The notes under the pieces were generated by a model. It did not search any database, had not been told where the DNA came from, and worked only from the letters and a program-made list of their open reading frames with translations. Source: Escherichia coli (GTDB lineage Bacteria; Pseudomonadota; Gammaproteobacteria; Enterobacterales; Enterobacteriaceae). Taken from it: 635 bases of DNA. A program made the position numbers and the translations under genes. Of the stretch, positions 1 through 635 are shown one piece after another. Within the stretch, counting starts at the first letter, position 1. The number at the start of each line of letters is the position of its first letter. The stretch lies in NCBI RefSeq assembly GCF_003334255.1, contig NZ_QOWU01000206.1, one strand, 5' to 3'.

Positions 1-635
1 GTTCTGGCATCGAAGTCTATGGCTTTCCCCAGCTCAACGATTGTGCGTACATCGCGATCGTTGTAGTAACGCCACGGGCAGGGGATCCCCTGCCGTTCGT
101 ATGAACGGCGCAAAATCGTGTTGTCGAAGTTGGCTCCATTTCCCCAAACCTGAACAAAAAATTCACCGGAGTTTTCGTCGATAAATTCTCGCAATTGTAA
201 CAGTGCATCATCTAACGGGATTTCATCGGTCATAATGGCAGATTGCGCTTCGCGTGATTGCTTAAGCCACCATTTAATGGTGTCCCGATCAATGACTCCG
301 CCAGCAGTTTCCAGATCGATAGTCTTACTAAATTCCGGTCCCATATCTCCGGTTTGCGGATCGAAAAATATTGCACCTATTGAGATGATCGGGGCATCAG
401 GATTTTTTCCCATGGTTTCAAGGTCAATCATCAGATGGTGCCACAACCTGCTGGTGGATGTGATAACGTGATGACCGTTCACCGTAATTAAGGGATCTGC
501 CGTCTCGCCAGTTTCACTATCGCTGGCGTGATCCTGAGCGCTGCCAGCATTCTCCTTGTGTGGATGTTCAGCGCCTTCCATTTCCTCCGGATCATCTTCC
601 TGAACTTCAACCTGATACTCTTCATCGAATGTTTC
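1..635 (-). CDS. Partial CDS (5' and 3' ends outside window): acidic low-complexity segment followed by a DnaQ-like DEDD-family 3'-5' exonuclease domain; possibly part of a prophage RecE/exodeoxyribonuclease VIII-like protein (hypothesis)
   Basis: Hand translation of the minus strand in the frame whose codons occupy 635..633 down to 5..3 gives 211 sense codons with no stop. The other two minus frames contain stops (e.g. TAA at 488..490 in the +1 frame). Exo I-like motif MIDLETMG is encoded by 408..431 (D-x-E-T-x-G). Exo II-like motif WGNGANFD is encoded by 123..146 (N-x-x-F-D, cf. RNase T/epsilon H-N-A-x-F-D). The hydrophobic strand [10 protein letters not shown] after Exo I fits the DnaQ fold. 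No good Shine-Dalgarno precedes either in-frame ATG (429..431 and 579..581), consistent with the true start lying beyond 635. Family assignment is from motif recognition only; no search was run. Confidence 0.85.
77..94. repeat. Perfect 18-bp palindrome GGCAGGGGATCCCCTGCC (contains GGATCC and a central GATC) inside the CDS; function unassigned
   Basis: Base-by-base check: positions 77..94 equal their own reverse complement (9 of 9 pairs); symmetry breaks at 76/95. The chance of a 9-pair perfect palindrome somewhere in about 630 positions is roughly 0.002 for random sequence. It encodes R-Q-G-I-P-C-P on the minus strand. No downstream T-tract, so it is not a terminator. Confidence 0.5.

Follow-up and report, generated by a model that had tools for sequence, protein, structure and literature searches.

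A recurring IDLET pentapeptide in the predicted DEDDh exonuclease domain of an Escherichia coli prophage protein

The pentapeptide IDLET occurs twice in the translation of the window, that is, of the whole 635-nt stretch of Escherichia coli DNA that was analysed. With a probability of about 0.85, the two copies are unrelated parts of one single-copy DEDDh exonuclease domain, copy 1 being catalytic and copy 2 a structural connector. The recurrence as such is real but ordinary. This reading removes an internal duplication as a possible false lead and gives a residue-level account of a prophage exonuclease domain present in 4713 of 5426 complete E. coli genomes (window matches occupy a median of one place per genome and a maximum of eight).

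Frame 0 of the minus strand runs without a stop across all 635 nt and yields 211 aa. Copy 1 is read from the reverse complement of nt 414-428, ATTGACCTTGAAACC (ATT GAC CTT GAA ACC), corresponds to window residues 70-74 and is followed by MG. Copy 2 is read from the reverse complement of nt 306-320, ATCGATCTGGAAACT (ATC GAT CTG GAA ACT), corresponds to residues 106-110 and is followed by AG, and the spacing between the copies is 36 residues, or 108 nt. The coding segments are identical at 11 of 15 nt; a third-position change separates the codons at four of the five residues. An earlier note on this DNA had reported the same five residues at these two places with different codons, and translation confirms it in all details. 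The note had further regarded the pair as a recurrence of protein rather than of DNA, which also holds: the pair is not among the repeats reported by a DNA repeat search of the window, and only 23 of 93 nt are identical outside the 15-nt motif. A DNA repeat was rejected on both counts. The coordinates of all features are collected in Table 1.

Table 1. Positions of the features discussed, in nucleotides of the window unless a locus is named
Feature	Position	Strand	Basis or remark
Internal gene fragment, parent residues 576-786 of 823 aa	1..635	-	lambdoid-prophage exonuclease gene, E. coli
Acidic low-complexity linker, N-terminal to the exonuclease domain	471..635, and upstream in L002	-	translation
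Rv2179c-like (PF16473) DEDDh 3'-5' exonuclease domain, truncated at the left end of the window	9..440	-	Pfam
IDLET copy 1 = Exo I, parent I645-T649	414..428	-	conservation, DexA alignment, AF2
IDLET copy 2, parent I681-T685	306..320	-	AF2/DSSP, column counts
Helix RDTIKWWL (model 62-69), T-x-x-W-W signature	264..287	-	AF2, conservation
Exo II WGNGANFD, catalytic Asp = model D116 (predicted)	123..146	-	conservation, DexA alignment
Parent gene, 823-aa protein	5889-8360 of locus L002	-	

The exonuclease domain and its Exo I motif

The Pfam search found a single domain, PF16473, which covers window residues 66-209 (E=3.7e-54, model positions 1-148 of 177) and, in the complete parent protein, residues 641-813 (E=5.5e-67, model positions 1-177 of 177). 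The match to PF00929 was weak in both window and parent (E=0.003-0.07). An AF2 model of parent residues 631-823, built from an 81-sequence alignment, reached a pLDDT of 94.2 and a pTM of 0.90. This model and its Foldseek comparison with the PDB identified an RNase H-like DEDD exonuclease fold, with phage T4 DexA as the top hit (E ~1e-11), followed by RNase T, oligoribonuclease/REXO2 (Orn) and DnaQ domains. Since the PF16473 match, the similarity to DexA and the AF2/Foldseek fold all point the same way, the window domain is, as judged from sequence and model, an ordinary DEDDh 3'-5' exonuclease domain. Indeed, with a full-length HMM match in the parent and the DEDDh motifs in place, it shows no family-level difference from PF16473, the Rv2179c-like 3'-5' exoribonuclease family. 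PADLOC returned only a weak generic DEDDh match (E=3.8e-5) and the domain is therefore not assignable to any catalogued defence system.

In the AF2 model, strand beta1 comprises residues 12-19 (HLMIDLET, nt 414-437), beta2 residues 28-36 and beta3 residues 43-51 (MGPEFSKTI, nt 318-344). Copy 1 lies wholly within beta1, at its C-terminal end, and aligns to D7-F8-E9-T10 of DexA. To follow both sites through the family, we used 147 aligned representatives of 50%-identity clusters, among the matches listed (150 of 11,279 family matches). At the first site, the columns read I/L/V, D (134/137), L/I, E (133/137) and T (128/137), which places the conservation of D, E and T at 93-98%. Copy 1 is thus the Exo I motif, D-x-E, and its Asp and Glu, D646 and E648, are predicted to ligate the catalytic metal ions. 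The earlier note had assigned the Exo I position to the first copy only, and the Pfam match, the DexA alignment and the family column counts all agree with this.

In the 81-sequence alignment, the signature T-x-x-W-W-x-x-Q is nearly invariant, T64, W67, W68 and Q71 being at least 90% conserved. In Exo II, which follows the pattern N-x-x-F-D, W109 is invariant, conservation is at least 90% at G110, N111, G112, F115 and D116, and the motif aligns to G-M-S-F-D119 of DexA. The Exo III motif, H-x4-D, lies beyond nt 1 and outside the window; in the parent protein it reads HNALDD, with H166 and D171 at least 90% conserved.

Structure and conservation of the second site

The DSSP assignment of the copy 2 region is E at residues 43-51, '-' at 52 and HHH at 53-55. 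Hence, the Ile is the last residue of beta3, the Asp is coil, and Leu-Glu-Thr form a three-residue helical turn (nt 306-314). A loop, A-G-G-V-I-D, and then the helix RDTIKWWL follow, and copy 2 connects beta3 to this helix. The same pentapeptide thus adopts two conformations in the AF2 model, EEEEE in copy 1 versus E-HHH in copy 2, within non-equivalent elements of a single fold.

The earlier note had made its reading of the second IDLET depend on conservation in homologues, and here the answer is divided: the exact word is not conserved, being limited to close alleles, whereas the underlying pattern is, T4 DexA included. In a close-homologue set of 120 clusters, mostly from Enterobacteriaceae, the exact second IDLET was found only in alleles that are at least about 88% identical, and close alleles also carry IDLDT, VDLET or IDMKT at this place. 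More distant homologues, of 54-70% identity, show V-[SND]-L-[KEAS]-S-[AS]-G here. Among the family representatives (141 sequences at these columns), the first position is V in 75 and I in 58, and the second D in 77, S in 35, N in 8 and T in 5; L occupies the third position in 102, the fourth holds E (55), A (17), D (13) or Q (11), and the fifth S (83), T (20), D (18) or N (6). The next residue is A in 70 and S in 41 of the 141, and a Gly follows in 107 of 142. The family pattern can be written as [VI]-[DSNT]-L-x-[STDN]-[AS]-G, with D at 55% and E at 39%; the D position holds D, S, N or T in 89% of sequences, and the S/T/D/N position such a residue in 90%. The 81-sequence alignment agrees with the representative column counts for both sites. 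The second site is, on these alignments, a real, semi-conserved family motif with the consensus V-D-L-E-S-A-G-G, whose acidic residues, unlike those of Exo I, are replaceable. The exact IDLET at this place is a clade-specific variant of a semi-conserved PF16473 position.

The residues that replace the Asp, namely S, N and T, are, like D itself, classic helix N-cap residues and stand just before the turn, and the site is therefore better explained as a capped turn than as a metal site. From the secondary structure of the model and these substitutions, we infer that copy 2 consists of a strand end, an N-cap, a turn and a Gly. Its role would be structural: the end of beta3 and a short capped turn would lead toward the T-x-x-W-W helix, the side chains of Ile and Leu probably facing the hydrophobic core. 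The D position would then accept any N-cap-type residue (D/S/N/T), the T position would accept S, T, D or N, and the following Gly would make the turn.

On the other hand, the second h-D-L-E-[ST] could be a functional acidic site, a sort of pseudo-Exo I of the DexA-like exonucleases that provides an extra metal site, a substrate contact or part of the dimer interface. We regard this as unlikely, although several features speak for it. D is the majority residue (55%), while L, S/T and G are well kept, and D-L-x-S persists in T4 DexA (D50) in spite of ~22% identity. Furthermore, beta1 and beta3 are parallel, so that, judging from the fold topology, both strand ends should lie at the active-site face. 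Against it, D gives way to S, N or T in 34% of the sequences and E to a non-acidic residue in about half, whereas D and E of Exo I are 97-98% invariant. In addition, residues 49-54 of DexA do not appear among the functional residues given in the DexA structural paper (D7, E12 (sic), D119, H186, D191, W152 and D169), and a text search of that paper found no mention of F49-Q54. A more specific version, namely that h-D-L-E-[ST]-[AS]-G-G after beta3 is a second acidic site peculiar to DexA-like exonucleases, with IDLET being selected in the E. coli prophage clade, seems to us quite unlikely. If it were true, this second acidic site might hold an additional metal or the penultimate nucleotide in place, or contribute to a dimer interface that controls substrate choice.

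Origin of the recurrence

With copy 2 read as a structural connector, the likeness of the two words would follow from similar local architecture. Both segments would be composed of a strand end, a polar cap and a glycine, with alternating core hydrophobics, so that the two site consensuses are already alike, [ILV]-D-L-E-T-M-G versus [VI]-D-L-E-S-A-G. Conservative replacements of V by I and of S by T at the second site would then, in the clade of E. coli prophages, have made the two words identical by chance. Exact 5/5 identity of the sites was found, among 138 representatives, in the window's clade and in one further protein only, P0150. Residues 36-185 of P0150, an unrelated representative only 50% identical to the query, carry VDLET at both sites. 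The exact coincidence therefore arose at least twice, independently, in the family, as is expected if the two consensuses are simply close.

The two sites show no co-variation: across the 138 representatives their mean identity is 1.91/5, compared with 1.88 +/- 0.04 when the pairing is shuffled. Co-evolution of the sites or gene conversion between them was rejected by this test.

Within a single protein, such an exact match is slightly out of the ordinary, but it is unremarkable as a similarity and given that it was selected post hoc. IDLET is the only repeated 5-mer of the 211-aa protein. When the 211 aa are shuffled with their composition preserved, some repeated 5-mer arises in 1.4% of the shuffles; for the 147-aa domain part the figure is 0.56%. 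When the domain is aligned locally to itself (BLOSUM62), the IDLET pair is the best off-diagonal match, with a score of 29 that 18% of shuffles reach.

The earlier note had also suggested that the recurrence might be a trace of an ancient internal duplication. Spelled out, a ~36-residue unit that begins with h-D-L-E-T-x-G would have been duplicated in tandem and have diverged except for its first seven residues. In favour of this, an exact 5-mer repeat with G at +7 in both copies is found in only 0.6-1.4% of shuffles, the second-site consensus VDLESAG resembles that of Exo I, and the different codons would fit an old event. Nevertheless, the flanks, the profile comparison and the secondary structure do not support it, and we hold a duplication to be very unlikely. 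In an ungapped comparison of the two units, the flanks share 3 of 31 aa (BLOSUM sum -25) and, at the DNA level, the 23 of 93 nt given above, both of them random levels; the ten residues upstream share none. Comparison by hhalign of the beta1-beta3 sub-alignment with the next 38 columns or with the rest of the domain gave scores of ~15 and probabilities of 12.8% and 3.5%, respectively, and aligned 15 columns only, starting from the motif. The nominal P of this local match is 0.002-0.012, so the two site consensuses resemble each other slightly more than random sequences do. Structurally, the AF2 model shows copy 1 as strand throughout and copy 2 as the end of a strand with a helical turn; copy 1 is followed by beta2-beta3, copy 2 by loop-helix-helix, and Foldseek recognises the whole as a single RNase H-like DEDDh domain. 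To our knowledge, no internal symmetry of the RNase H-like DEDDh fold relates beta1 to the end of beta3. Moreover, the DnaQ domain of S. thermophilus (8h18) has IKYEE at the position that profile alignment equates with copy 2 and, unlike the window domain, no D-L-E-S-like word after beta3; the motif is therefore not ancestral to the fold. Collectively, none of the three properties of a tandem-repeat protein, that is, extended similarity, a profile match and equivalent secondary structure, was found.

The note's other suggestion, coincidence, stands insofar as the exact second word occurs in the closest alleles only, but not insofar as the site belongs to a semi-conserved motif, represented by FDLKS in DexA. 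Pure coincidence, in which an unconstrained site happens to spell IDLET, is in line with the confinement of the exact word to alleles of at least about 88% identity and with the self-alignment score reached by 18% of shuffles, but is most improbable in view of a clearly constrained site (V/I 133/141, L 102/141, S/T/D/N 127/141, G 107/142) whose pattern is also kept in T4 DexA.

The parent protein and its relatives

T4 DexA (8KEL/8KEN) is the only close solved relative of the domain and ranks first in the PDB by sequence (E=1.5e-7; 4.2e-23 when the family profile is used) as well as by fold. The two share Exo I (IDLETMG here, IDFETMG in DexA), the T-x-x-W-W helix (T64-I-E-W67-W68 in DexA) and the N/S-F-D of Exo II. 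At the position aligned to copy 2, DexA has F49-D50-L51-K52-S53, that is, h-D-L-x-S, and contains no pentapeptide repeat. The differences are nonetheless considerable: identity amounts to ~22% only, DexA has extra loops and helices, and it is a stand-alone enzyme, whereas the window domain forms the C-terminal part of a protein of 823 aa. The DexA structural paper counts D7 and D119 among the catalytic residues and reports that W152 stacks on 5hmC. This W152, which serves 5hmC recognition, aligns to a Tyr in P-W-R-Y-Y of the window domain (window ~30-44, minus strand), and, should the protein function like DexA, this Tyr may matter for which substrate is preferred. The region of D169 aligns ambiguously, at or beyond the window edge. 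With RNase T, oligoribonuclease and DnaQ epsilon (PF00929), the domain shares the fold (Foldseek E 1e-7 to 1e-6) and the arrangement of Exo I, II and III.

An E. coli homologue of DexA, EcD, has been described as 'HREX' (Kang et al., NAR 2025, PMC12153337), and such homologues are proposed to act as anti-T4 defence enzymes that selectively degrade 5hmC DNA (PMC12153337). The wider relevance of the present domain lies in this DexA-like branch, for which an anti-phage role has thus been proposed recently (PMC12153337); for the prophage protein it would apply by analogy only. Compared by the stated Ala78 alone, EcD had no match among the stand-alone E. coli homologues of 180-185 aa that were inspected.

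The window translation is identical over all 211 aa to residues 576-786 of WP_439402590.1 (NZ_CP196679.1, E. coli), so RefSeq already contains the protein; the family has likewise been described, motifs included. The prophage that carries the gene of this 823-aa protein is lambdoid and sits downstream of yccA. Matches to the window, at up to 96.5% nucleotide identity, were obtained in 29 records of Escherichia phages and Stx-converting phages. The matched phage gene is 2.47 kb long, adjoins xis/int and bears the label 'exonuclease' or 'exodeoxyribonuclease VIII'. In the collection of complete E. coli genomes the gene is very widespread, yet no more than 12 records reach 99% identity to the window, which indicates that many alleles exist.

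The label 'exodeoxyribonuclease VIII' of several phage records deserves comment. Like RecE, the exodeoxyribonuclease VIII of the Rac prophage, the gene is positioned beside int/xis of lambdoid prophages, and parent residues 229-626 match positions 252-603 of NF007259. However, this partial match scores 285 bits against a curated equivalog cutoff of 1269, and the DEDDh domain occupies the region of the C-terminal nuclease of RecE. The label was rejected as unsupported. From its sequence, the 823-aa protein appears to be a chimera of a non-catalytic RecE middle and a C-terminal Rv2179c-like DEDDh nuclease. Since a partial RecE match is combined with a DEDDh C-terminus, the phage label looks like annotation transfer.

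Just upstream of the window, parent residues ~551-566 contain a CxxC-x8-CxxC word (CTACGQTGGGNCPDCG) of zinc-ribbon-like look, at which Pfam called no domain in the parent protein. This word separates the RecE-like region from the acidic linker. No significant Pfam domain was found in the linker itself. Amino-acid differences from related alleles fall at window residues 30-66, upstream of the domain and mostly in the linker; in the stretch compared against ENTGGNQHHNSDNETGETADHPIKVNGHHEITSTSRTCDH, they affect the linker and the short segment that leads into the domain. In E. coli and E. albertii, the domain is also annotated on its own, as proteins of 180 aa (P0009, P0015 and P0016). All three start exactly at the Met of M-IDLETMG, the residue that precedes copy 1 in the 823-aa protein. 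They may be genuine stand-alone genes, or else gene calls that reflect an internal start or a truncation.
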